In this document: piece after piece, positions 1 through 55,004 of the stretch | How the letters are laid out: every line of letters begins with the position of its first letter | How positions within the stretch are numbered: the first letter of the stretch is position 1 | NCBI GenBank assembly: GCA_964567265.1 | Contig: CAZMLK010000001.1 | Span: forward strand, 523,723 to 587,722 | DNA from: an uncultured Candidatus Saccharibacteria bacterium | GTDB lineage: Bacteria; Patescibacteriota; Minisyncoccia; Phycocordibacterales; UBA12088 | DNA: 64,000 nt | Reading direction: 5' to 3' | Position numbers and translations under genes: made by a program | The notes under the pieces: model-generated | Database searches by the model: none | Seen by the model: only the letters and a program-made list of their open reading frames with translations | Told to the model about the DNA's origin: nothing

Positions 1-231
1 CCACGCGAATGGATGCGCCACATTCTCTGGCGACATGAGATTGTAGTAGACCGTGGCGTGGTCGGTGAGTCCATATTCTCGAGCCAGCGCGCGATGCACG
101 TCGCCCGGCCACGCAGCGTCCTTCGCGAGACCGAAGCTGATTTCGCGTGCGGGCAGTGGCGTAGCGCTCGTCATCCCGCCGGTTACCGCAAGAAGCAGCG
201 GCAGGATATGCAGCCAATTCGCATCGTCCAT
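1..231 (-). CDS. N-terminal fragment of a secreted or membrane protein; the CDS continues beyond the window start
   Basis: Minus-strand ATG at 231 is preceded by a GGAGGA RBS with 4 nt spacing and a TTGACA-N16-TATTGT promoter-like element. The N-terminus MDDANWLHILPLLLAVTGG is signal-peptide-like. No stop is reached before position 1. The overlapping plus ORF 13..315 has no such signals. Confidence 0.35.
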   Translation of the reverse strand, partial: MDDANWLHILPLLLAVTGGMTSATPLPAREISFGLAKDAAWPGDVHRALAREYGLTDHATVYYNLMSPENVAHPFAW

Positions 232-369: not shown

Positions 370-3300
370 TTATTGTGCGGTAGTGGATGCAGTATCGTCT
401 TGGCCTGGGACAGGCGGAGATACCACAGGAGCAATTTCCTGCGGAGGCGTCGATGACGCTTCGACTGTTTCTTCCTGGGTGGTCGTCGCATCCTCGTCGG
501 GCGGTATGTCTGCAGGTATCGCAGGCGCATTCGGCTCCACGGGTGCGTGGTGGATGCCTGCATTCTCCATGAGCGTCCGGAGCTCTTCCCCAGTCACGCA
601 GACGCCGTCGATGCAGACACGCTTCCCTGCCGTAACCTCATCGGCTTCAATTTTCTTTGACTGCAGGTTATCGACGACGATGGTCTTCGCGAAGATCGTA
701 TCAAAAGTCGCCTGGAGCGCGCTTCCGGCCGCGCGAGCGCCGGATCCGAGGAGCGATGCGATCTGCTCCTGTTGATGCTTGAATGCGCCGACAAGTACCG
801 CTGCGATATCCTCATAGCGGACGCCACGCGGTGCCCCGTCCTCCTCGCGGAAGACCAATCGCCCGTCGACGACGGCCACTTCCTCGGCAATGAGACCGAC
901 ACGCTCCTCGTCCGTGCCGTTGTACTTGAAGCTGACTGGATGAAGCCGCGTCGCGAGGTCAGCCGCTTCCGCAGGCGTGAGCTCCGCGATGTCGTGCTTG
1001 AAACGTGCGGATGAGACGGTGCAGGTCTGCGCGCCCGTGTTCACGGTCACCTCCTTGTCTGACGAAAGACAGAGTGCGCTCCCGCTCGAGACCTCGGCGG
1101 TCAGACCGTCGAAACCGACCGTGCCGGTGACTGAGAGGAAACGCCAAGGACTGGTCGAGGCGATGCCGAATTTCCCGCCCGAGGTGAGTGCAGCCTTCGA
1201 GGTCTGATTCGTGATGAATCGGAGATCATGATTGGTCATCGTCCCAAGGAACGCCTGCGTGTCCTCGACGCGCATATCCATCGCTGCGCCATTGGTGGTA
1301 TCAGTGAAGCGGAAACCGGGGCTCGTCGCATCAGCTACATTCAATTTACGGTTCATCGTCGTCGTACCGATGCCGACGTTGCCGGATGAGTCGACGGTGA
1401 GGATATCACCGACCGCTGCAGCATACGTCGATTTGATGCGGAAATAATCCGCGCTCTGGCTCGTGGCGCCGGCGATCGTGAGCACGGATGCAGCCGCGTC
1501 GGTTCCGACGACATGGAGCCGTGACGTCGGAGTCGTCGTGCCGACGCCCACATTCCCCGCCGCGTAGACGAGATTCGATGAGGTTGCGATCCACTTATCA
1601 TTGTGGAGCGATTCGGAGACGACATTGTATCCGACTTTCTTGAGGGTATCCTCGCCGATGATGAAATGGTCATTGCCGCCGCCATCGGAATATGCTTGAT
1701 CAACGCCCCAGAGGACGCCGTCGACGCTGACGTAGCTCGCCTTCTCGACGCGGATGCCGACTGACGGCGCAGGCGTGCCCGTTCCATCGTCATCAACGCC
1801 CGGGATCTCGGTCATATTCTTGATGACGACCGGCGCGACGTGCGCGCTCGCCGAGCCGATGATGGCAACGCCAGCATACGGCGTCTCGCTTCCCCCGCCA
1901 TCGTTCGCGCCGTCGCGCCGGATGAGGAGCCCGGTGAAGCTGATCGTCGTTGTGCCGGTCGCGGAAATGCGGATGCCATGCCGATCGTTTCGGTCGGTCG
2001 AGAAATCAGTGAACTGGAATCCGCCATTCGAGGACGCGCCGTCGATATAGAGTCCCTCAAGCGTATTGAAGACGGCGCGCGAACTCACGACCTTCGTCTC
2101 TCCCATCGAAGTGAAATAGAAGCCGCGCTGCGCCCCGCCGACCACAAGCACGTCTTCGAGATAGGAGTCCGTAAGCGCGGTCGCGCGAACGCCGTGGAGT
2201 GCCGGGCTATAGATGGAAAGTTGCTGGACCGTGAAGCCGCGTGGATTGCCTGATCCACTGCCTTGCGCGGTCCGGAATCCGTTTCCGGATGTCTGTGAGA
2301 TATCAACGCCTTCCACCTTCCAGTCGCGCACCAAGCCCTCGAAGTAGAGGCCGTCGATCGCGGTGCCGAACGAATTGCCATCGATCGAAATATTACGGAT
2401 GCGCCCGCCGTTATTGTCCGCCGCCTGCCCCGAGATGCTCTTGTCGCGCACATGGACGATGGCAGTGCCCGAGAAGCTGGTCGTCGGCTTGATCGAGCTC
2501 CGCGGCGTCGAGGCATAGTACCAGCGCGGCGCATAGGTTCCTTGGAGCGTGACCGGCTTATCAAGAGTGATCGGCTGACTGATGCGGAATACTCCCATCG
2601 GGAACAGCACGGTGCCGCCGATCGGGCACGCGTTGATTGCCGCCATGATGGCAGCGTAGTTGTCCCTGGAGTCATCGCCGACCGCGCCATACGCTTCGAC
2701 GTTACAGACCGCACCACCGATGTCATAGAATTTTCCGGTCGTCGATGCGAGCGAGGTTCGCGCGAGCACGCTCAGTGAATGCTGGATGGTCGTCGTGCCC
2801 GCTGCTCCGCCAAAAAAAGCCGCGCCTGAGACTGAGAGCACTGACGCCGGGGAGCTCGTCCCGATACCCACGTTCCCGCTCGATCGGTACACATTCGCGC
2901 CGCTTGCGGTCCACGAACTTGAAGTCGCGGTGCCGAGCTCGGACCCGTTCCAGTACAGCGTGCCGCCCGAATTATAGAGACGATTCGTCGTATCCGATGG
3001 AGAAATGGATGAGAGCGCGAGCGCACCCTGCATGGAGGTATCGCCGGTGAAGGTCGCCTTATCGATCGTGCTTTCTGACGCGATCGTCGTCGAGACCGCG
3101 CGGACGGTCCCGGCACGGATGACCGTGAGCGCGTTCGTCGCATAAGCCTTCGCGTCAGCAATCTTTGCATCGATCGCGGATTCGGAGAGGCCTTGGAGAA
3201 TGTTGGTGACATTGGTCACGTAAGTCGGCGCAGCCTGAGAAGGCGCGGGGCGCGGCGAAGAAACGACCGGAGCATTTACCGGCTTAGGAATGGCTGGTGA

Positions 3301-3609
3301 ATGAACAGGCGCGGTTTCGGGTATTGCGACAGGTGCAGTGGTGTCAGGAATGACGGGGGGCGGGAGCGTCGCAACGGGGTCCGTCTGGACCTCCTTAGGT
3401 GGAAGAGCGGGAGTCGTATCGACGACAACAGGTTCTTCCTTGCAGAATCCAAGCGGTTTCAGAATGAAGCCGAACGTCGAGCAGAAAAAACCAGGAGTGC
3501 CGCCTTCCGCAGCGGCGATCTGGGGTACCAAGAATACCGTTACGGCAAGAACGGTTGCCGTTAAACGCAAAAGCCGAGGACTGCAGGGTCCTGTACGCAT
3601 TCCTCCCAT
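370..3609 (-). CDS. Secreted tailspike-like protein (1079 aa): Sec signal peptide, Pro/Thr-rich linker, pectate-lyase-superfamily beta-helix, three GNVGIGTTxP fibre-like repeats and a C-terminal peptidase S74 intramolecular chaperone autoprocessing domain
   Basis: The N-terminus MRTGPCSPRLLRLTATVLAVTVFLVPQIAAAEG is a signal peptide. YGAVGDDSRDNYAAIMAAINAC matches the YGAxGDGxTDDTxAIQxA motif that opens pectate-lyase-fold / tailspike beta-helices, and ISIDGN / GLYIDG are beta-helix rung motifs. The C-terminal SSARFKHDIAELTPAEAADLATRLHPVSFKYNGTDEERVGLIAEEVAVV matches the endosialidase-type S74 chaperone, including the SxxxxK Ser-Lys dyad spacing (cf SDARLK). Confidence 0.8.
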   Translation of the reverse strand: MGGMRTGPCSPRLLRLTATVLAVTVFLVPQIAAAEGGTPGFFCSTFGFILKPLGFCKEEPVVVDTTPALPPKEVQTDPVATLPPPVIPDTTAPVAIPETAPVHSPAIPKPVNAPVVSSPRPAPSQAAPTYVTNVTNILQGLSESAIDAKIADAKAYATNALTVIRAGTVRAVSTTIASESTIDKATFTGDTSMQGALALSSISPSDTTNRLYNSGGTLYWNGSELGTATSSSWTASGANVYRSSGNVGIGTSSPASVLSVSGAAFFGGAAGTTTIQHSLSVLARTSLASTTGKFYDIGGAVCNVEAYGAVGDDSRDNYAAIMAAINACPIGGTVLFPMGVFRISQPITLDKPVTLQGTYAPRWYYASTPRSSIKPTTSFSGTAIVHVRDKSISGQAADNNGGRIRNISIDGNSFGTAIDGLYFEGLVRDWKVEGVDISQTSGNGFRTAQGSGSGNPRGFTVQQLSIYSPALHGVRATALTDSYLEDVLVVGGAQRGFYFTSMGETKVVSSRAVFNTLEGLYIDGASSNGGFQFTDFSTDRNDRHGIRISATGTTTISFTGLLIRRDGANDGGGSETPYAGVAIIGSASAHVAPVVIKNMTEIPGVDDDGTGTPAPSVGIRVEKASYVSVDGVLWGVDQAYSDGGGNDHFIIGEDTLKKVGYNVVSESLHNDKWIATSSNLVYAAGNVGVGTTTPTSRLHVVGTDAAASVLTIAGATSQSADYFRIKSTYAAAVGDILTVDSSGNVGIGTTTMNRKLNVADATSPGFRFTDTTNGAAMDMRVEDTQAFLGTMTNHDLRFITNQTSKAALTSGGKFGIASTSPWRFLSVTGTVGFDGLTAEVSSGSALCLSSDKEVTVNTGAQTCTVSSARFKHDIAELTPAEAADLATRLHPVSFKYNGTDEERVGLIAEEVAVVDGRLVFREEDGAPRGVRYEDIAAVLVGAFKHQQEQIASLLGSGARAAGSALQATFDTIFAKTIVVDNLQSKKIEADEVTAGKRVCIDGVCVTGEELRTLMENAGIHHAPVEPNAPAIPADIPPDEDATTTQEETVEASSTPPQEIAPVVSPPVPGQDDTASTTAQ

Positions 3610-3646
3610 GATACCAATGCACTCGAGGAGCGTCTACGCAGGAAAA

Positions 3647-3662
3647 TGCCCTCAAGAGGGAG
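3647..3662 (-). terminator. Weak hairpin (CCCTC-TTGA-GAGGG) followed by a T-rich run, downstream of the GH130 operon
   Basis: Short inverted repeat read directly from the sequence. It is the only candidate terminator between operon end 3691 and the next gene start 3609. Confidence 0.25.
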
Positions 3663-3672
3663 AGCAATATAA

Positions 3673-4665
3673 ATGAAAAAAGTCAAAATCCTAGGAAAGC
3701 TCCTTCACGAGGTCGGCAAGCTTGATGGTCGCGACGCCGACGACGGAATCCGCGCCGCCATAATAGACATACACCATATTGTCGCGGATGACCGCGCCAC
3801 AGGGGAAGACGACGTGCGGTATCTGCCCTTCATGCTCATACTGTTCCGTTGGCTCGAAGAGCGGCGACACGGTGCGGGAAAGCACCGTGGTCGGATCCTT
3901 GAGGTCGAGAAGGACCGCGCCGACGCGATACGTCTTGTTCTTCGACACGCCGTGATAAAGGAGTATCCATCCGTGCTTGGTCTTCAAGGGCGGCGCAGCG
4001 ATGCCGACCTTCTGGCTGTCCCACATGCCGGGCCGGGGTCCGATAAGCTGGATGCAGCGCGACGCCTTGTCGATATCGAAGTTCAGCGAATTCAGGAAGT
4101 CAGCGCAGATATGCGTGCCGAGGCGATGGAGGATCATGTACTTCCCTTTCACTTTCTCCGGGAGGATGCAGGTATCCTTGTCATCGATGCCGGTCGGCGT
4201 GATCACGACCGGGCGGGACCAGTTCCACTCATGGCTCACGAAATCCTGGACAGAAATGGAGGTCGCGGCGACGACAGGCGCATGCACGCCATCGTACGCC
4301 GTGTAGCACATATAGAGCGTGTCGCCGAGACGCGTGATGCGCGGATCCTCGCATCCGGAATTCCCGTTCGGGTCACCTTTCTTCATCTCGAAATCCTCCC
4401 GCGGAACGTAGATCGGCTCATCAAGGCGCGTCGTTATCGAGAGCCCGTTCTTCGAGGTCGCGAGGCCGAGCGTCGAGGTGTTGTCCTCGGACATGGCGCG
4501 GTAGACGATGTAGACCGTGCCATCGATCTCGATCGCCGCCGGATTGAACACGGCTCGCGATTCCCAGCCATGCTGCGGGATCGGCTTCAGGGTCGGATTC
4601 TTCGGATAGCGCTTCATGTACTTGAAGCGGGTCTTGGTATTCAGATTCGCGATCAGGCTTGGTAG
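3673..4665 (+). other. Long antisense ORF opposite the GH130 gene; judged non-coding
   Basis: High-GC antisense frame fully embedded in a confidently assigned CDS. Its translation is Arg/Asp/Gly-rich and low-complexity. Confidence 0.1.
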
Positions 4666-5595
4666 CTCGACCGTCGCGCGCGCGGAGGTCGTATCCGCAG
4701 CGCCATAGTAGATATCGAGATTCTTCCCGCGCACGAGCGCGCCCGACGGGAAGATCACGTTCGGGATCTGGCCGTAGTATTCATATACTTCTTCAGGAAC
4801 CAGCAGCGGTCCCGGCGTCCGGCCGAGGATCTTCCGGGGATTCTTGAGATCAAGAAGGAGCGCCTCGACGCCCCAGACCTTGTCATTCGAGAAATAATTC
4901 TGTGCATGCGAGTAGATGAGGAGCCAGCCATCCTTGGTCTTTATGGGCGGCGCGGCCACCTCGGCCTGCTCATTATCAGAACGGCGCGGATCGATGATGT
5001 GCTTCTCTTTGTTCTTCTCCCAATTCTCCCAGAATGCAGGTGACCACAAGTCCTCGATGTTCTTGCACTCGGCGAACGCCATCTTCACGGGCGGGCGGTC
5101 GGTGTCGAGCGAGAAGATCACGACGAACTTGCCGTTGACCTTCTCGGGGAAAAGCGCCATCGCTTTCGCGTTGAACGGCGTGATGAGGTGCTTCTCTTGC
5201 ACCCTCTTCAAGTCCTTCGAGATCGCGAGCGCGACCTTGATATTGTCCGGGCCGAACGGGAAGCCGCCGAGCGCGGTATAGAAAATATAATACTTGCCGC
5301 CGATCTTGGTGACACGCGGATCCTCGCAGCCGTACCGCTCCCATGCATGCTCAGGAATGATGAACTGCTCACGGTTGTCGAACTTGACCCCATCCTTCGA
5401 GGTCGCGTGCCCGATCGTGGAGAGCGCGAGATGCACGCCTTCATACTGGTCGGCGCGCGACATCGCGCGGTAGAGCACATGCAAGGTCTTCCCTTCCATG
5501 ATCGGACTCCAATTGAAAGTCGCCAGCGCCTCCCACGGATGCTCGGCAAGCGGGCGGAGGAGCGGATTGTGCGGATCTCGTTTGATGATAAACAT
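3691..5595 (-). CDS. Glycoside hydrolase family 130 protein with two complete GH130 (DUF377, 5-bladed beta-propeller) domains fused in tandem; probable beta-mannoside phosphorylase or mannosidase
   Basis: 634 aa. Both halves carry GH130 hallmarks (NPxxxxxxxWExxAxFNxAA, GxxxLLYRAxS, GCEDPRIT, YYGAAD, IYPCG-like). The second copy starts near residue 320 (KNPTLKPIPQHGWESRAVFNPAAI). Confidence 0.85.
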   Translation of the reverse strand: MFIIKRDPHNPLLRPLAEHPWEALATFNWSPIMEGKTLHVLYRAMSRADQYEGVHLALSTIGHATSKDGVKFDNREQFIIPEHAWERYGCEDPRVTKIGGKYYIFYTALGGFPFGPDNIKVALAISKDLKRVQEKHLITPFNAKAMALFPEKVNGKFVVIFSLDTDRPPVKMAFAECKNIEDLWSPAFWENWEKNKEKHIIDPRRSDNEQAEVAAPPIKTKDGWLLIYSHAQNYFSNDKVWGVEALLLDLKNPRKILGRTPGPLLVPEEVYEYYGQIPNVIFPSGALVRGKNLDIYYGAADTTSARATVELPSLIANLNTKTRFKYMKRYPKNPTLKPIPQHGWESRAVFNPAAIEIDGTVYIVYRAMSEDNTSTLGLATSKNGLSITTRLDEPIYVPREDFEMKKGDPNGNSGCEDPRITRLGDTLYMCYTAYDGVHAPVVAATSISVQDFVSHEWNWSRPVVITPTGIDDKDTCILPEKVKGKYMILHRLGTHICADFLNSLNFDIDKASRCIQLIGPRPGMWDSQKVGIAAPPLKTKHGWILLYHGVSKNKTYRVGAVLLDLKDPTTVLSRTVSPLFEPTEQYEHEGQIPHVVFPCGAVIRDNMVYVYYGGADSVVGVATIKLADLVKELS

Positions 5596-5614
5596 ATGCG
5601 TGTCGCGTTGTTAC

Positions 5615-7429
5615 TTATTTTACAACTACTTTTTCCGGCTGGAGCGATACGAGGCTGTCCTTCTTGATGTTGTCCACGAACGCATCGAGCGGCGTATGCG
5701 CGACGCAGGTCACCATGTCTGCTCCGCCATAATAGATGTACAGCTCTCCCTTGATGACCGCAGCCCCGCATGGATAAATCACTCCCCATTTGTGGCCATG
5801 GTTCTCGTACTCGGCATCCGGGACCGCGATCGGCAGGCGCGCGCGATAGAGCACCTTGGTCGGATCCTCAAGGTCAAGGATCATGGCACCCATCTTGTAG
5901 CGTCCAGGATCACGATCGTCGACGCCTTGGTAGATCACGAGCCAGCCCGCTTCCGTTTTTATCGGCGGAGGTCCGACGCCCAGCTTGCGGCTGTCCCAGA
6001 ACGACGGGCGCGGCTTGATCTTGTGTTCGCCGGTCAGCCACCGCTTCCCTTTGAATTCAAGATCTGGCACGAAGTCGATGAGCATGTTCGGGAAGATGCG
6101 ATGGAAGAGCACGTACTGCCCGTTGATCTTCTCGGGAAACAGAGCGGCATTCTTGTTGACCTGGTGCGGCCGCGAAATCAGCAAGGGTTGCTTCCACTTC
6201 CAGTTTCCTGCCTTGAAATTATTGAAATCGATCGACGTGATGGCGACGCGCGGCGCCTCCCAGCCGTTGTACGCGACGTAGGTCATGTACACCTTGCCGT
6301 CGATGAGCGTGATCCGCGGATCCTCGCAGCCGCCCCAGCCGCCGCCCGAGGTGTATTCTTGCGTGTGCTGCCACGGGAGGGTTTCCGTACCCTCAGAAGG
6401 CGTCCTGGCTGCATATATAGGATAGGTAAGGCGGTCCGTAAACGAGAGGCCGTCAACCGACGTCGCGTAGCCAACCGTCGACATCCCGTCGTGCCCGATG
6501 GCGCGATAGAGGAGATGCACCTGCTCGCCATCGAAAAGCGCCGCAGGATTGAAGGTCGCGACTGATTCCCAGTGGCTGTCCGCATCCGGACTGAGGACCG
6601 GATTGAGATGGTGCGGCTTCTTGAGGTACGCATCGCCGACCGCGAGCGGATGCTTGAATGGCTCCGGGATCGCGACGGTGTGTATCTCTTTGGCTGCATC
6701 AATCCAGTAGAGTCGGATATCTTCGCCGATGAGGACCGCGCCGAGTGCCTCCGCGATCGTGTCCTTCATGTGTTCCTCGAAAAGGAACGACTCGCCGCTC
6801 CAGATGAGACGCTTCGGATCATCGGAAGCGAAGAGGAATCCTTCGATACGGAGAAGTGTCCCTCCCGCATCGGCCTTCGAGCGGTCCATGAGCACGAGGA
6901 TGCCGGCCGGCGTCGCGAGCGCTCCCCAAATCTTCCCGCCGACGATGCTTGTCCGCGTCTTCTTCCATTTCTTGAAATCCTTGGTTTCCGCGATGGTGAG
7001 GGTATCATCGCCGATGTAGAGCGCGTGGTGATCATGGGCGAAGATGCCCGGCGCCAGCACTGCGGAAGACACGTTTTCCGCGATCTTCCCTTTCACGCAC
7101 CACGAAGACAGGTCTTTCGAGATGGACCCGACAAGCTCGGACTTCTTCCCTTTCGTACGGACGTATGATGCGAAGGCGCCTTCCGGGACCGGAGTCACAT
7201 GCATGTGCGAGAGCGCGCTCACATCCTCAAGCGAACCGCGATCCGTGAGGAGCCGCAGCTTCTTCCGTGGCCGATCGAAGCGCACGCCTTCGCCACTCTT
7301 CTGGAGGAAGACGGCGACATCACCCTTCTTGTCAGTCTCGCGATATACGAGGAGGGCGCTTCGCCCATGTTGGCCGACGCCAAGGGGCACGTTCCCGATC
7401 GCCAGTTGTTTCCCCTTCTTCACAGGCAT
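5615..7429 (-). CDS. GH130-family protein (604 aa) with a degenerate N-terminal GH130-like half and an intact C-terminal GH130 catalytic domain
   Basis: The C-terminal 330 aa carry HLNPVLSPDADSHWESVATFNPAAL, LLYRAIGHDG, GCEDPRITLIDGKVYMTYVAYNG, IYYGGADM. The N-terminal 270 aa retain only faint GH130 patterns (ALLVYRETDKKGDVAVFLQKSGEGVRFD). A 20 bp gap separates it from the upstream gene. Confidence 0.8.
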   Translation of the reverse strand: MPVKKGKQLAIGNVPLGVGQHGRSALLVYRETDKKGDVAVFLQKSGEGVRFDRPRKKLRLLTDRGSLEDVSALSHMHVTPVPEGAFASYVRTKGKKSELVGSISKDLSSWCVKGKIAENVSSAVLAPGIFAHDHHALYIGDDTLTIAETKDFKKWKKTRTSIVGGKIWGALATPAGILVLMDRSKADAGGTLLRIEGFLFASDDPKRLIWSGESFLFEEHMKDTIAEALGAVLIGEDIRLYWIDAAKEIHTVAIPEPFKHPLAVGDAYLKKPHHLNPVLSPDADSHWESVATFNPAALFDGEQVHLLYRAIGHDGMSTVGYATSVDGLSFTDRLTYPIYAARTPSEGTETLPWQHTQEYTSGGGWGGCEDPRITLIDGKVYMTYVAYNGWEAPRVAITSIDFNNFKAGNWKWKQPLLISRPHQVNKNAALFPEKINGQYVLFHRIFPNMLIDFVPDLEFKGKRWLTGEHKIKPRPSFWDSRKLGVGPPPIKTEAGWLVIYQGVDDRDPGRYKMGAMILDLEDPTKVLYRARLPIAVPDAEYENHGHKWGVIYPCGAAVIKGELYIYYGGADMVTCVAHTPLDAFVDNIKKDSLVSLQPEKVVVK

Positions 7430-7450
7430 AGAAATAGGCGGTCGTTGCCG

Positions 7451-7792
7451 CTAAATGCGTCCGTACTTGTCTGCTAACCTGACGATATCCTTCTCATCAA
7501 AAGAGCCGAACGCGATCTCGAGAAACATTGCTCCTCCTTTCCCTGCCTTGATGCGGTGCTTCTTCTTTTTAGGTATCAGGAATTCATCTCCTGGCTTTGC
7601 GACGGTAACGACGTCGCCAATCGTGACAGTCGGCTTCCCCGAAAGGATCCGCCAGAACTCGCTCCGGCCGTTATGATATTGTAGGCTGAGCTCGCCGCCC
7701 GACTCGATGGTAATCACTTTTACGGTCGATTCCTGATTCGCCGTAAACTGTCGAAAATTCCCCCACGGGCGCTTCACTTCCTTGATTCGCAT
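7451..7792 (-). CDS. Small cupin, phosphomannose isomerase (type II PMI C-terminal cupin) family
   Basis: 113 aa. KRPWGNFRQF...SLQYHNGRSEFWRILSG resembles the cupin_2 / ManC C-terminal domain (KRPWG, HxH..E pattern). Confidence 0.65.
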   Translation of the reverse strand: MRIKEVKRPWGNFRQFTANQESTVKVITIESGGELSLQYHNGRSEFWRILSGKPTVTIGDVVTVAKPGDEFLIPKKKKHRIKAGKGGAMFLEIAFGSFDEKDIVRLADKYGRI

Positions 7793-7823
7793 ATGCTGTC
7801 AGTATAACCCCTCCGCTCGTAAA

Positions 7824-8585
7824 TTAGACAATGGCTTCTGTGAGTACCTTTTCAGTGAAGGTGCCTGTTTCCTCCGGCCCCGTGACCGGAACGGTCTCGA
7901 TGCCGGTTTCTTTCGCCGGCGCATCATTCCCGCCTTCAAAAAGCGCGTCACCGACAAACACGGCATCCGCGACCGGGATCTTGAGATACTCGAGAATCTT
8001 CCGGATGCCGTAGGCCTTATCGACACCCTTCCGCGTCACATCGATCGTGGTCGAGCCGGAAACGCGCACCTCGAAATCGGGAAGCTTCGGGACGAGGACC
8101 GCCTGGAGAGCTGCCCGTTTGGTCCGCTCTGGATCCCATGCATGCTTCTCTGAAAGCGGCGCCTGCTGGCCGAGGCCTGAGAAGGATACCTGCGAGCCGC
8201 GGTCCTCGATCTGCTCGCCGTACAATTTCGCCGGCTGCTCGAAGTTGATCTCGCCGAACGATTCATGGAATGCATCGATGATCCGCCGGCGCTCATCGGG
8301 AGTGAGGAGCTCCTCATATTCAGCGCGGAATGAATTGTGCTCCTCATCGTATATATAGAGCGCCGCGCCGCTTGTCGGCAGGAGGTAGAGGTTGTGGAGT
8401 ATCTGCCCTTGCTCCCCGAGCTTGCTTACGCACTGCTTCTCGAGCTGGTCGAAGGTCCCGCCCGTTATGATGGCAACCTTCGTCGCCGCAAGGAGATTGA
8501 GGAGGAGGTTTATAACTTTCGGTTCGAGGGGAGATTTCGAAGGTGCGAGCGTGCCGTCGAGATCGAAGATGTAGAGTTTCTTCAT
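7824..8585 (-). CDS. HAD-IIB hydrolase of the eukaryotic-type phosphomannomutase (PMM) family
   Basis: 253 aa. LYIFDLDGTLAPSKS (DxDGT catalytic motif), AIITGGTFDQLEKQ and FVGDALFEGGNDAPAKE parallel the PMM motifs (FDVDGTL, VVGGSDF.K, GDKTxxGGNDxEI). Confidence 0.8.
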   Translation of the reverse strand: MKKLYIFDLDGTLAPSKSPLEPKVINLLLNLLAATKVAIITGGTFDQLEKQCVSKLGEQGQILHNLYLLPTSGAALYIYDEEHNSFRAEYEELLTPDERRRIIDAFHESFGEINFEQPAKLYGEQIEDRGSQVSFSGLGQQAPLSEKHAWDPERTKRAALQAVLVPKLPDFEVRVSGSTTIDVTRKGVDKAYGIRKILEYLKIPVADAVFVGDALFEGGNDAPAKETGIETVPVTGPEETGTFTEKVLTEAIV

Positions 8586-8812
8586 ACAGAAGAGTATACC
8601 CCGGGAACGGACCCATGCTCCACCCTACAATCCTACAGCTCGGAACCACCCTTCCCGAACCTGTGCTGGTTGTGCAAAAATGCATTGACAGAAAACCTAT
8701 TCTGTACTACAAATAAGGGGTCAAAACGATAGGTCTGCGTAGGGAAAATTGGTTGAGTTTTCTTCAGCAGGACGCGATGTTTTGAAGATTTACTCAGCGT
8801 TATTTTGCCACT

Positions 8813-9016
8813 ATGGACAAAGGAACAATTGCTCGCCTCATGGGCGACAAGGGTTACGGCTTCATCAAGCGCGATGATGGCCAGAAGGACCTCTTCTTCC
8901 ATGCAAAGGAATTGAACGGTGTTGTGTTCGAGGAATTGCACGAGGGAGATGCCGTTACTTTCGAGATCGGAAGCAACGAGAAGGGTCAGCACGCAACGAA
9001 CGTTGCGCGCGCATAA
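8813..9016 (+). CDS. csp: Cold-shock protein (CspA family, S1-like OB fold)
   Basis: 67 aa. GTIARLMGDKGYGFIKRDDGQKDLFFHAKEL carries the RNP1-like KGYGFI motif. A ~100 nt 5' UTR is typical of csp genes. Confidence 0.9.
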   Translation: MDKGTIARLMGDKGYGFIKRDDGQKDLFFHAKELNGVVFEELHEGDAVTFEIGSNEKGQHATNVARA

Positions 9017-9044
9017 GGTCTAGGCTCCGGCCTTCCCTACACAG

Positions 9045-9078
9045 AAAACAGCTCCGAAAGGAGCTGTTTTCTTTTGTG
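9045..9078. terminator. Bidirectional intrinsic terminator (AAAACAGCTCC-GAAA-GGAGCTGTTTT)
   Basis: Perfect 10 bp stem with a GAAA loop, A-tract before and T-tract after. It sits between convergent csp (+) and the 9096..9716 gene (-). Confidence 0.7.
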
Positions 9079-14622: not shown

Positions 14623-14659
14623 GGTGGCCGCCAGCAAAGCTGGCGGCCACCTTTACTTT
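14623..14659 (+). terminator. Intrinsic terminator (GGTGGCCGCCAGC-AAA-GCTGGCGGCCACC, then TTTACTTTA)
   Basis: 13 bp perfect stem followed by a T-rich tract, immediately downstream of the 14062..14610 gene. Confidence 0.7.
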
Positions 14660-15467
14660 ATATATACAAAAATCCGAGGATGGAGAGCGCGAGGAGGGTG
14701 CGATAGAGGATGAAGATGCCGAGCGAATTGTTTTTGAGGAATCGAATGAGGAAGTGGATGCAGCCGAGGCCGACAGTGAAGGCGACGAGGGAGCCGAGGA
14801 GGAGCGGGAAACCGATCTGCGAGAGCTCGCCGTGCATGCCGAGCTCCAGGAGCTTCTTGAGGCCGGAGCCAAGGATGATCGGGAAGGAAAGGAGAAAGCC
14901 GAAGCGGGCGGCCTCCGAACGCGAAAGGCCGAGCATGAGGCCGCCCGCTATGGTCGCACCCGAGCGGGACACGCCAGGTACGAGCGCAAGGCATTGATAC
15001 AAGCCGATGCCGATGCCGCGCCACACCGAAAGGGTTTTTTTCTCAGTGATCCACTTCCCCGTCCACTCCGCAAGGAGGAGGAGCGCGGAACCGGCGAGCA
15101 GCATCCACGCGACCAGCTCCGCGCTCCGGAAAATGGTTTCCATGCGTGACTCGAGGAGAAGGCCTGCGATCACCGCAGGGATGGTGCCAAAAATGATCGC
15201 GAGGATCATGACCTTCTGGCCCGATTCCACCCCGCGACCGCGGATCCACGAGAGCGTGTCCTCGGCAAGGCGCCAGAAATCATTGCGGAAATACACGAGG
15301 ACCGCGAGCGCGGTCGCGAGCTGGAGGACGGCATCGACCGCAAGCCCGTCTGGTGTCACGACGCCGAAGAGATCACGGGCGATGATGAGGTGGCCCGAAG
15401 AGGAGACCGGCAGGAACTCGGTGAGACCCTGCACGATGCCAAGAAAAAGGAATGGGTAGAGGTACAT
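14658..15467 (-). CDS. uppP: Undecaprenyl-diphosphate phosphatase
   Basis: MYLYPFLFLGIVQGLTEFLPVSSSGHLII and GVSRSGATIAGGLMLGLSR are the two conserved BacA/UppP motifs. Eight predicted TM helices. Confidence 0.95.
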   Translation of the reverse strand: MYLYPFLFLGIVQGLTEFLPVSSSGHLIIARDLFGVVTPDGLAVDAVLQLATALAVLVYFRNDFWRLAEDTLSWIRGRGVESGQKVMILAIIFGTIPAVIAGLLLESRMETIFRSAELVAWMLLAGSALLLLAEWTGKWITEKKTLSVWRGIGIGLYQCLALVPGVSRSGATIAGGLMLGLSRSEAARFGFLLSFPIILGSGLKKLLELGMHGELSQIGFPLLLGSLVAFTVGLGCIHFLIRFLKNNSLGIFILYRTLLALSILGFLYI

Positions 15468-23544: not shown

Positions 23545-24918
23545 ATGGTCTGCATGGCCACCGGCCCCGACACCAACCTCCGCAACCGGATTATCGGCCC
23601 CACACTCCTTGTCGCGTTTGCGTGGCTCCTCTACGCGCTTGGCGTCGCCTGGCGATTTTGGTACATACTTTTCGACCATCGTGCTACGAATTTTATCTTC
23701 AGCGATATGCAGAATTATGCAGTCGTGGGAATGAAGATGTTCAACGGCACACCTCTTTCTATCTCAGATACGATCTGGTCGCCCGGCGCATCGCTGTTAT
23801 TCGGGTACTTCGGGACGCTGTCTCCCGCATTTTCAGCGACGATGGCAGTGCAGTTCTTCATCTCCGCGGCAGTCCCGGTCCTCCTCTTCCTTCTCACCCG
23901 CAAGATCTACGGACGCCCGGAAGCGTATCTTGCCCTCGTCTTCGCAACCGCCTACTTCCCATTCGTCGAATTCTCTGCGTACTTCCTTTCCGAGATCCCA
24001 TTCCTTGCCGTCATACTCCTCGCACTTCTCGCGCTCGTCAACGGGCTCGAGACCCCGCTCCACTGGAAGATGCCATTCTTCGGGTTCGCAGCAGGTCTCC
24101 TCCTTGGCATCGCGGTGGCATTCCGGAGCATCGCCCTTGTCCCGGGCGCGTTCGCGCTCATCGCGCTCCTCATGTTCTTCCCTGGCGCGTATGGATGGAC
24201 GCGTATCCGGAGACTGCTCCTCTTCGGCACGGGAGGATTCGGGCTCGCGATGCTTCCGCTCATGTTCTGGTGTTCTAGCATTGCAGGATTCTTCTGCATC
24301 GGCTCTACGAACGCGGCGCTCACCACGCTCCAGGGTCATTGGTATCCGGGAATCTCCAATTTCTATTTCCATGACCTCAAACGCGGCCATGAGCTTGGAT
24401 TCGGGCCGCCAACGCTCCACGAACGCGGGATCGAAGGCAACCTGAACTTGTATTTCGGCCCGTATGACCAGCCGCGCGTACTCCTGCTCATCCATGATTT
24501 CATCATCGAGCACCCGCGGCTGGCATTCAGCCAGTCGGTCCGGAACGTCAAGGATCTCTACTGGGGCACGGTTCCGTGGCCGTCGTGCTGCAATGCCGCA
24601 CGGAGGATGATGGCCTTCTCGCAGTGGGCATGGCTTCTCCTCCTGGTCATCCCGACGCTCGCGGTCATCGGACGGGTTCCGAAAGGTGACCAGCGCGAGA
24701 ATCGATATCTCCTGCTCCTCATTGCGCCGATCATCGGCATCACGATCGCGGCATTCCTGACGCTCGGCGATCCGCGGTACCGCATCCCCTTCGACTTCAT
24801 CTTCATGATCATCGCGGCGCATGGCTATGTTCTCGCGTTCGAGCACCTCAGGCACTCTTTCCAAACGCAAAAGAGCCGGCGCGTACGCGCCGGCTCTTCA
24901 GGAGTCATTCCAAATTAA
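23545..24918 (+). CDS. GT-C fold polytopic membrane glycosyltransferase (ArnT / PMT / YkcB-like, probably polyprenyl-phosphate-sugar dependent)
   Basis: 457 aa with about 11 TM helices. The N-terminal loop between TM1 and TM2 and the overall topology resemble GT-C enzymes. No exact motif could be confirmed by eye. Confidence 0.6.
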   Translation: MVCMATGPDTNLRNRIIGPTLLVAFAWLLYALGVAWRFWYILFDHRATNFIFSDMQNYAVVGMKMFNGTPLSISDTIWSPGASLLFGYFGTLSPAFSATMAVQFFISAAVPVLLFLLTRKIYGRPEAYLALVFATAYFPFVEFSAYFLSEIPFLAVILLALLALVNGLETPLHWKMPFFGFAAGLLLGIAVAFRSIALVPGAFALIALLMFFPGAYGWTRIRRLLLFGTGGFGLAMLPLMFWCSSIAGFFCIGSTNAALTTLQGHWYPGISNFYFHDLKRGHELGFGPPTLHERGIEGNLNLYFGPYDQPRVLLLIHDFIIEHPRLAFSQSVRNVKDLYWGTVPWPSCCNAARRMMAFSQWAWLLLLVIPTLAVIGRVPKGDQRENRYLLLLIAPIIGITIAAFLTLGDPRYRIPFDFIFMIIAAHGYVLAFEHLRHSFQTQKSRRVRAGSSGVIPN

Positions 24919-54074: not shown

Positions 54075-55004
54075 TTACTGTTTCTGCAACAGCAGATTGA
54101 TGGCCTTGGTAATAATGGGGAGGATATCGCGATAGAAGTTGAGGTCGAGGATGCTTGAGAGCTTGAACCAGCGGGCGTCATCGAGACCTCCTTTTTCTTC
54201 AAGGGTGATTTCAGAGAATTCTGATTCAGCGAGGAAGTAGATGACGCGCTTACGCTTCTTGCCGTCGCCAGGCGTCGAAGCGACGTACTCGTTCTCGCCG
54301 AGCTTGTCCTTGACGGTGATGTCGAGATTGATCTCTTCCTTGATCTCGCGGACGACGCCGTCTTCTTCGGAGATGCCGTCCTCGATGCCACCCTTCGGCA
54401 GCGTCCAGTGGCCGAAGACATCGTGGACGAGCGCGACATACACATCATCGCCTTCGCGAGCGAAGACGACGGCGCCGACTTTGCGCTCGATCGGAAGCTT
54501 GTCGTACGGGATCTCCTCGCGCTTCTTGTGCTTCCCTTGCGGGTGCGGCTTCTTGGAGGTTTCTTCTTTGCCGGGCTCGCCGAGCTCCTTGTACACGGCC
54601 CCGAGGACGCCGTTCACGAAGCGGCCGCTCGACTCGCCGCCGAAATTCTTCCCGAGCTCGATTGCCTCGTTTATGGCGACCTTCGCAGGCACTTCCTTGC
54701 GATCCGCGAACAGGAGCTCGTAGAGGCCGAGGCGGAGGATGTTGCGATCAACCGGCGCGATCTTGTCGATCGGCCATTCAGGAGCAGCCTTCTCGATGAT
54801 GAGATCGAGATCCTTCTGCTTCTCCCTGACTCCCTGGAGCAGATTCTTCATGTACGAAAAATCGCCCGTACCGGGAGCGAATTCATCAATATTGCGCTGG
54901 AGCACCTCTTCGACGTCGATATTCCCCTGGCCGTCCTTTGTAGTGACGTCCCATTCAAAGAGCGTTTGGAGGACTATTGACCTCGATAGGTGCCTGTTTG
55001 CCAT
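54075..55004 (-). CDS. nusB: Fusion protein: N-terminal transcription antitermination factor NusB domain plus C-terminal Nudix hydrolase domain
   Basis: Residues 1-140 (RSIVLQTLFEWDV...DRNILRLGLYELLF...VAINEAIELGKNFGGESSGRFVNGVL) are NusB. Residues ~170-309 carry the Nudix box GGIEDGISEEDGVVREIKEEINL (Gx5Ex7REUxEExGU). Confidence 0.85.
   Translation of the reverse strand: MANRHLSRSIVLQTLFEWDVTTKDGQGNIDVEEVLQRNIDEFAPGTGDFSYMKNLLQGVREKQKDLDLIIEKAAPEWPIDKIAPVDRNILRLGLYELLFADRKEVPAKVAINEAIELGKNFGGESSGRFVNGVLGAVYKELGEPGKEETSKKPHPQGKHKKREEIPYDKLPIERKVGAVVFAREGDDVYVALVHDVFGHWTLPKGGIEDGISEEDGVVREIKEEINLDITVKDKLGENEYVASTPGDGKKRKRVIYFLAESEFSEITLEEKGGLDDARWFKLSSILDLNFYRDILPIITKAINLLLQKQ

Follow-up and report, generated by a model that had tools for sequence, protein, structure and literature searches.

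A conserved Patescibacteria gene cluster encoding tandem GH130 proteins, a HAD-type mutase and a cupin isomerase, with a predicted role in beta-1,2-mannoside metabolism

The DNA analysed here (the window) is a stretch of 64,000 nucleotides from contig CAZMLK010000001.1 of an uncultured Candidatus Saccharibacteria bacterium, positions 523,723 to 587,722 of the forward strand. It is a piece of bacterial chromosome carrying rpoB, rpoC, rpoD, dnaG, dnaE, hisS, thrS, smc and similar genes; the encoded RpoB (1064 amino acids, aa) and RpoC (1240 aa) are short, and neither the tRNA scan nor the Rfam scan of the 64-kb window returned a match. Our subject is a unit of four minus-strand genes near its left end, encoding two GH130 proteins, a cupin of the phosphomannose isomerase (PMI) type and a HAD-IIB protein. 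A preliminary description, made from the letters of the stretch, had read them as an operon for beta-mannoside phosphorolysis, possibly supplied by the secreted product of an adjoining fifth gene, and the coordinates it gave for the five minus-strand open reading frames (ORFs) are all exact. The four genes of the unit are as follows:

3691-5595, minus strand: tandem GH130 gene, 634 aa (ORF list and PF04041)
5615-7429, minus strand: second GH130 gene, 604 aa (ORF list and PF04041)
7451-7792, minus strand: PMI-type cupin gene, 113 aa (ORF list and PF01050)
7824-8585, minus strand: HAD-IIB mutase gene, 253 aa, first gene of the four-gene unit

The spacers within the unit are 31, 21 and 19 bp, and an N-terminal signal was found in none of the four proteins. 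Profile searches matched every Pfam family that had been anticipated for the five products, namely PF04041, PF03332 (weakly), PF01050, PF07883, PF12708 and PF13884.

Relatives of the operon proteins that are named by source come almost entirely from Patescibacteria, the candidate phyla radiation (CPR), and include Nomura-, Adler-, Taylor-, Pace- and Moraniibacteria, Parcubacteria and Minisyncoccia. We mapped 18 related loci by tblastn and blastp (cited below by L numbers) and found the gene set in two orders: HAD, cupin, long GH130 and tandem GH130 in the window, L007, L017, L018 and Nomurabacteria; and cupin, short GH130, tandem GH130 and HAD in Adlerbacteria, Taylorbacteria, Minisyncoccia and others. 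Distant relatives that share the set have proteins just 31-60% identical, and the flanks vary by lineage, with LemA, SecDF, RNase J, surface proteins, a histidine kinase and, once, an MFS transporter lying beside the cluster. The recurrence of the set in two orders amid differing flanks argues strongly that the four genes work as a unit, and their clustering exceeds chance. What had first been called an operon thus stands as a unit conserved in distant relatives, whose genes we infer to be co-transcribed. The tandem protein is particularly uniform: of the best 120 clusters of its family, 116 have lengths of 615-655 aa, with identities mostly of 56-62%, and the usual name of these relatives at NCBI is 'hypothetical protein'.

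Both GH130 genes, each at first credited with a single GH130 domain, encode a fusion of two five-bladed propellers, in the 634-aa as well as in the 604-aa protein. The four domains are arranged as follows:

3691-4629, minus strand: C-terminal GH130 half of the 634-aa protein, residues 323-634, with the canonical beta-1,2-mannoside phosphorylase signature
4630-5595, minus strand: N-terminal GH130 half of the 634-aa protein, residues 1-322, with sugar-binding and proton-donor residues kept and an acidic phosphate pocket
5615-6604, minus strand: C-terminal GH130 domain of the 604-aa protein, residues 276-604, phosphorylase-like, with the beta-1,2 signature and His replaced by Gln
6626-7429, minus strand: N-terminal domain of the 604-aa protein, residues 1-268, a degenerate GH130-like propeller

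The family match to PF04041 is strong for both proteins (E 1e-105 in two stretches for the 634-aa protein, E 1e-49 for the 604-aa protein), and AlphaFold gave confident models (pLDDT 94.1 and pTM 0.90 for the former, pLDDT 91.9 and pTM 0.83 for the latter). The best structural match of both long proteins is Teth514_1788 of Thermoanaerobacter (TM 0.89-0.92); no solved chain spans both propellers of a GH130 fusion, the best query TM being 0.44-0.45. The 634-aa protein also scores 461 bits against the NCBIfam model for beta-1,2-mannobiose phosphorylase, NF052550 (cut-off 450 bits), as the sum of its two halves. By sequence and by fold, each of the three catalytic-looking domains comes nearest to Teth514_1788 and Teth514_1789 (E up to 2e-59; TM 0.87-0.92). 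These two enzymes have in common with the proteins of the window the beta-1,2 signature of Arg, Glu-Asp, Lys, His-Arg, His and Asp, the adjacent pairing of two GH130 genes and a cytoplasmic location. The Thermoanaerobacter enzymes are, however, single-domain proteins of ~300 aa, whereas those of the window are two-propeller fusions.

The reference residues were taken from the literature. In UhgbMP the proton donor Asp is D104 and the phosphate is held by the pair Arg168 and His231; the +1 subsite is formed by Arg59, Tyr103 (in beta-1,4 enzymes) or Glu (in beta-1,2 and beta-1,3 enzymes), Arg150 or Lys (beta-1,2), and Asp304 (Li 2020, PMC7660257, Table 2). GH130 hydrolases carry a Glu pair at the phosphate residues, E227 and E268 in BT3780 (Cuskin 2015, PMC4599007). 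The GH130 domains of the window were aligned with Teth514_1788, Teth514_1789, the hydrolase-type structure 4ONZ and BT3780 (5A7V), and the BT3780 numbering was checked through the 5A7V alignment.

In the C-terminal half of the 634-aa protein, R366, E416, D417, K473, H490, R491, K529, H548 and D616 each recur in 116 or more of the 117 family members, and this half resembles Teth514_1788 closely in sequence (E 2e-59) and in fold (TM 0.91, rmsd 1.7 A). Because a Glu/Lys pair occupies the +1 subsite, its specificity is predicted to be for beta-1,2 rather than beta-1,4 linkages. The beta-mannoside phosphorolysis of the preliminary description thus fits the phosphorylase signature, and the signature residues narrow it to a favoured beta-1,2 linkage, not beta-1,4.

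The N-terminal half of the same protein is different at the phosphate site. Among the 117 family members, R43, E91, D92, K144, D166, E212 and D301 vary hardly or not at all, S229 is found in 113 and E244 is invariant; at the phosphate-binding positions, however, Arg has become S/T, Lys has become V/A and His has become S (S229). E212 falls on the Glu of 'TECG', which is E268 of BT3780. This half resembles the GH130 beta-1,2-mannosidases BT3780 and BACOVA_03624 in lacking the phosphate-binding basic residues, in having a Glu at the E268 site and in retaining the Glu-Asp, Lys and Arg sugar contacts, and it most likely has a hydrolase-like acidic pocket of their kind. It differs from the BT3780 type in being phosphorylase-derived, in the lack of a signal peptide, in its fusion to a phosphorylase and in the S/T at the E227 position. 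Its score against the BT3780-type model NF058598 is 92 bits (cut-off 550), the phosphorylase model outscores the BT3780 model on it, and hhalign joins it to its own C-terminal half with E 2e-65; by these comparisons its descent is predicted to be from the phosphorylase lineage. A strict transferase of the GT108 kind was also considered for this half and is disfavoured, as a low-probability variant only, since what GT108 transferases have in place of the Arg is His and not a carboxylate. Longer relatives of the tandem protein exist, namely P0005 (1110 aa), P0010 (996 aa), P0054 (971 aa) and P0106 (978 aa), one of them with an extra PF22847 domain, and some of these may be three-domain fusions.

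The C-terminal domain of the 604-aa protein has R309, E369-D370, K426, H443-R444, K482 and D571, and its best fold match is again Teth514_1788 (TM 0.89). In relatives of the protein the position of its Q501 is occupied by H, Q, N, K or Y, and the family (P0121-P0183) falls into two covarying phosphate-site subtypes, 'HR...K-x-G' or 'H-[SNDGA]...x-R-G', the latter with the Arg shifted one position, so that it looks as if the phosphate-binding Arg of this subtype has moved to the neighbouring strand. The basic residues that bind phosphate, which the preliminary description had named as the mark of phosphorylases over pure hydrolases, are accordingly complete in the C-terminal half of the 634-aa protein, complete but for the His-to-Gln change in the C-terminal domain of the 604-aa protein, and absent from the N-terminal half of the former, one of the three catalytic-looking domains.

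At its N-terminus, the 604-aa protein carries a domain that we read as a catalytically dead structural relic. This domain has no Pfam or NCBIfam match and is recognised by profile-profile comparison only, in a local hhalign alignment with its own C-terminal domain (probability 99.5%, E 1e-22); no catalytic residue survives at the Glu-Asp, Lys, His-Arg, His and Asp positions, and AlphaFold confidently models an all-beta fold (pLDDT 91.9). An exhaustive HMMER search of 1.84 billion representatives found just 63 clusters with this domain, mostly in proteins of ~600-730 aa, and because of these 63 clusters the blank result of a word-index search is to be taken as a limit of sensitivity and not as absence. 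Short orthologues of the 604-aa protein (L009, L010, L011, L012, L013 and L016) begin, in place of the dead propeller, with a hydrophobic helix and then Lys/Arg, which, by the positive-inside rule, suggests that they are tethered to the cytoplasmic face of the membrane.

The 253-aa HAD protein matched NCBIfam HAD-IIB and, weakly, PF03332 (28.9 bits, cut-off 22.4), with the general HAD model PF08282 scoring higher. Its best solved relative is the alpha-phosphoglucomutase PgmH of Lactococcus lactis (4BND, E 3e-34, residues 1-247 of 253), and eukaryotic phosphomannomutases (PMMs) rank after it (E 3e-10 to 2e-4). The likeness to PgmH extends over a full-length alignment to the HAD-IIB core and cap motifs: of the PMM2 cap Arg pair, R134 and R141, the first is kept, and the R141 position is Gln, as in 4BND. 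Across 10 CPR orthologues there is no change in DxDGT, the cap Arg, Lys or GDxxxxGGND. The protein is thus best classed, from sequence, as a bacterial PgmH-type mutase of the PgmH / eukaryotic-PMM family, and the eukaryotic-type PMM that had seemed unusual for a bacterium gives way to a close relative of a bacterial enzyme. PgmH is a housekeeping phosphoglucomutase, whereas the HAD protein of the window sits in a mannose-related cluster; it is predicted to interconvert mannose-1-phosphate and mannose-6-phosphate, gene context alone pointing to mannose over glucose.

The cupin matched PF01050 (65.4 bits, cut-off 23.6, E 7e-18) and also PF07883, and aligns with positions 357-467, the C-terminal PMI part, of the GMP_PMI model TIGR01479. 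Its motifs RPWG, SLQxHxxRxExW, HR and DIxRxxDxYxR are invariant in nine orthologues. It is a cupin of the type II PMI kind, with a predicted metal and substrate site, and would interconvert mannose-6-phosphate and fructose-6-phosphate. A stand-alone cupin in this role had also been thought unusual; it is present in most of the relatives sampled.

A rival reading is a looser association, in which the HAD protein would be the general alpha-phosphoglucomutase of the cell, the GH130 domains would act on another glycoside and the closed mannose pathway would be only apparent. It would fit this that a phosphoglucomutase is the closest characterised relative of the protein, that no lone GH130 domain passes the equivalog cut-off and that the position of the HAD gene differs between the two cluster types. 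The gene is nevertheless retained in the cluster in both orders, the PMI-type cupin beside it implies a mannose-6-phosphate intermediate, and the residues of the -1 subsite and of the beta-1,2 signature are all in place. In addition, mannose-1-phosphate is the sole donor used by the characterised GH130 phosphorylases that were tested for donors (PMC7660257). We consider such a loose association very unlikely.

Domain content, signature residues, conservation and synteny, as observed above, lead instead to the reading that we hold to be probable, a Patescibacteria-wide cytoplasmic cluster that links beta-1,2-mannosides to central metabolism without ATP cost; the substrate and the direction of flux are what we infer from them. 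In the first step, the two phosphorylase-type GH130 domains, which form the C-terminal half of each long protein, would use inorganic phosphate to cleave beta-1,2-manno-oligosaccharides to alpha-mannose-1-phosphate. The PgmH-type HAD mutase would then shift the phosphate to C6, and the 113-aa type II PMI cupin would convert mannose-6-phosphate to fructose-6-phosphate. The N-terminal propeller of the 634-aa protein would most likely serve as a phosphate-independent helper, hydrolysing a linkage that the phosphorylase halves cannot take. The closed chemistry of the preliminary description, from mannoside through the two mannose phosphates to fructose-6-phosphate, remains coherent, with one GH130 domain having all the phosphorylase signature residues and a second all but one; the mutase step in it is assigned to mannose by context.

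This order of reactions, from GH130 enzyme to PMM to PMI, is the accepted, ATP-saving fate of mannose-1-phosphate in other bacteria, and the same ATP-free logic from mannoside to fructose-6-phosphate is found in Bacteroides thetaiotaomicron and Ruminococcus albus (PMC4264767). In these two the linkages are beta-1,4 and the signature is Tyr/Arg, whereas here the signature is that of beta-1,2 enzymes and the cluster includes a HAD mutase and a 113-aa cupin. The PMM of B. thetaiotaomicron and R. albus is of the alpha-D-phosphohexomutase type, their PMIs are large, and the genes are not known to be clustered with those for GH130. The Thermoanaerobacter cluster has other partners again, an ABC transporter, GH5, a mannose-1-phosphate guanylyltransferase and GT4, and was proposed to supply GDP-mannose (PMC4264767); in the cluster of the window, a mutase and an isomerase accompany the GH130 proteins, and there is no transporter or guanylyltransferase.

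Several observations weigh against the proposed pathway. Taken singly, the GH130 domains stay below the 450-bit cut-off of NF052550 (209 and 257 bits for the halves of the 634-aa protein, 236 bits for the C-terminal domain of the 604-aa protein), and in the last of these Q501 replaces the phosphate-binding His. In the N-terminal half of the 634-aa protein, the position of BT3780 E227 is S/T, with the invariant D166 four residues later. The closest characterised mutase to the HAD protein is a phosphoglucomutase, and PgmH reportedly prefers glucose phosphates. One relative of the first order, L001, has no cupin, and the case for co-transcription of the four genes is drawn from spacing and synteny only. 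Finally, no sugar transporter is consistently linked to the cluster in the annotated related loci, where transporter genes nearby were an MFS gene upstream in L012 (its relative L013 is unannotated) and SBP_bac_5 3.4 kb upstream in one other locus, and we know of no source of beta-1,2-mannosides for these organisms.

Because a consistently linked transporter and a known source of beta-1,2-mannosides are both lacking, an internal mannogen-like reserve stays a serious rival, albeit one that we consider rather unlikely. The enzymes would then run a cycle of reserve and synthesis, from fructose-6-phosphate through mannose-6-phosphate and mannose-1-phosphate to beta-1,2-mannan by reverse phosphorolysis, and back; the product would be a mannogen-like buffer of carbohydrate and phosphate in the cytoplasm, or a beta-mannoside made without nucleotide sugars, and the half with the acidic pocket would trim or prime the chains. 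The module is indeed self-contained, with an isomerase, a mutase and several GH130 domains and without a transporter, signal peptide or GDP-mannose enzyme, it is conserved across lineages of many habitats, and the membrane anchor with Lys/Arg on the single GH130 of many relatives would make that enzyme face the cytoplasm. On the other hand, phosphorolysis is normally the favoured direction in cells, a hydrolase-like domain would waste the energy of the stored bond, and beta-1,2-mannan has never been reported in these bacteria; we know of no mannan in CPR bacteria at all.

The enzymology for such a cycle exists elsewhere. Beta-1,2 GH130 phosphorylases readily make oligomannan from mannose-1-phosphate, and Teth514_1788 is a weak GDP-mannose transferase (PMC4264767, PMC12814180). 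Leishmania runs a cycle of this kind with GH130-like GT108 enzymes of bacterial origin (PMC10913872). These mannosyltransferase/phosphorylases (MTPs) resemble the proteins described here in being cytosolic beta-1,2-mannan enzymes of GH130-like fold and mechanism, with paralogues of divided roles; they are, however, a distant structural match only (6Q50, MTP4, E 6e-10, TM 0.61, 16% identity), and in the strict transferases among the GT108 enzymes the Arg position is taken by His and not by a carboxylate. That Parcubacteria-type CPR build and remobilise a cytoplasmic beta-1,2-mannan as a counterpart of Leishmania mannogen, with the phosphate-independent, acidic-pocket domain and the phosphorylase domain of the tandem enzyme jointly setting chain length and turnover, seems to us distinctly unlikely.

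The gene that adjoins the unit downstream on the same strand, and the spacer between them, are the following:

370-3609, minus strand: S74 gene, 1079 aa (ORF list), adjoining the four-gene unit
3610-3690, minus strand: spacer between operon and S74 gene, 81 bp, with a T-run hairpin at 3666-3647 and a promoter-like site at 3636-3608 (pattern scan)

The S74 protein opens with a signal peptide and a linker rich in proline (26% Pro); next come four GxVGxGT fibre repeats and a beta-helix at residues 302-499, and its C-terminal part holds an S74 chaperone from S866 and an acidic Pro-rich tail. The profile matches are PF12708 (E 6e-12) and PF13884 (E 4e-8, residues 866-913), and a Ser...Lys dyad at the putative S74 cleavage site (S866/S867 and K871 in 'SSARFK') predicts self-cleavage. 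A match to PHROG minor tail and tail fibre families was obtained with E 6e-43, and the fibre repeat matches the Bdellovibrio fibre protein 8OJN, which comes from a study of chimeric fibres used in prey recognition (PMC10769870). The GxVGVGTTxPTSxLHVxG repeat, the C-terminal chaperone and the PHROG matches are shared with 8OJN of Bdellovibrio bacteriovorus and with S74 phage tail fibres; the S74 neighbour differs from these in its pectate-lyase-type beta-helix, its Sec signal and its location on a CPR chromosome.

In the preliminary description this protein was a possible means to capture or depolymerise external beta-mannan for the operon. The arrangement invites such a view: the gene lies on the same strand, 81 bp downstream and behind a weak hairpin, the adjacency is conserved in three relatives, and glycan depolymerases occur among PF12708 beta-helices. 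The S74 gene follows the operon, however, only in the clade of the window itself (L007, L017 and L018), where synteny extends over the whole region, including BacA, HisS, TruB and Gmad2; in the other lineages with an annotated downstream flank, different genes (LemA, surface proteins) come after the cluster. The S74 protein also evolves faster, being 90.6% identical between the window and L017 where the operon proteins are 96-99% identical, it is most like the tail fibres of phages and a fibre with which Bdellovibrio recognises its host, there is no uptake system to go with it, and the GH26-like genes downstream are closest to a lichenase and not to mannanases. The conserved linkage of a surface protein and a transporter with cytoplasmic enzymes, which marks a locus for glycan capture and utilisation, was not found in the related loci. 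We therefore consider a feeding role very improbable indeed: the S74 protein is a separately evolving surface fibre, a neighbour rather than a part of the conserved module, and a host-contact fibre of an episymbiont would fit it at least as well as a feeding depolymerase.

Transcription from the operon may read through into the S74 gene, the hairpin between them folding no better than shuffled sequence (z 0.06); a terminator at this place was rejected on that ground. At the left edge of the window, positions 1-231 (minus strand) are the first 77 codons of a homologue of a GH26-like lipoprotein. Close relatives have two such paralogues after the S74 gene (L017 11341-13905; L007 15632-20960); in L007, genes for a processive GT2 synthase and a VTT/DedA protein come next. 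The GH26-like genes are found in the clade of the window only and were rejected as support for a mannan theme, the closest solved structure being the Clostridium thermocellum lichenase CtLic26A (E 4e-16) and mannanases matching at E 0.03.

On the other side, the unit is bounded by these features:

8586-8812, no strand: upstream divergent intergenic region, 227 bp, bounding the unit (sequence read)
8813-9016, plus strand: cold-shock gene, 67 aa (PF00313, E 8.5e-22), divergent from the HAD gene

Since this region and then the divergent cold-shock gene lie upstream, the four-gene unit starts at the HAD gene. A promoter pattern scan found no sigma-70-like site 5' of the HAD gene. A TATACT hexamer is placed 7-8 nt 5' of the ATG of both the HAD gene (8586-8600) and the cupin gene (7793-7810) on the minus strand, and the upstream sequence of these two genes has no Shine-Dalgarno at the usual distance, so that leaderless or internal starts may be used. 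A perfect hairpin with a T-run is located at ~9042-9072, between the cold-shock gene and a convergent 240-aa ORF.

Other observations concern the surroundings of the module. In L017 the GH130 proteins are 97-99% identical to those of the window, and the spacer between their genes is 143 bp (5858-6001) against 19 bp in the window (5596-5614). The undecaprenyl-diphosphatase gene bacA (14658-15467 in the window, minus strand) is no more than a few kb away from the module in L001, L004, L007, L009, L012 and L013, directly upstream of the cupin in L009, a proximity that could reflect old synteny or a cell-envelope link. Elsewhere in the window, a 457-aa ORF (23545-24918, plus strand) has a weak match, below the cut-off (E 2.5e-4), to PMT_2, a family of polyprenyl-phosphate-mannose-dependent glycosyltransferases, and a 309-aa ORF (54075-55004, minus strand) has NusB and NUDIX domains.

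In the literature searched for GH130 together with Parcubacteria or Patescibacteria, no description of a CPR operon with tandem GH130 enzymes was found; one earlier paper merely records two intracellular GH130 genes in a Microgenomates genome. What is new here is the conserved CPR operon with differentiated tandem GH130 enzymes, the GH130 chemistry itself being of a known kind. At NCBI these proteins are 'hypothetical', and one automated model reaches its naming cut-off only by summing two domains. In enzymological terms, the tandem protein would be a natural case of the duplication of a phosphorylase domain in which the phosphate pocket of one copy has turned acidic and hydrolase-like, and this pocket would have arisen independently of the GH130 mannosidases of Bacteroides. 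Metabolic genes are very scarce in CPR bacteria, and what is said of their carbon sources is for the most part guesswork. The retention of the cluster in many lineages of such gene-poor organisms therefore points strongly to a genuine nutrient or reserve.

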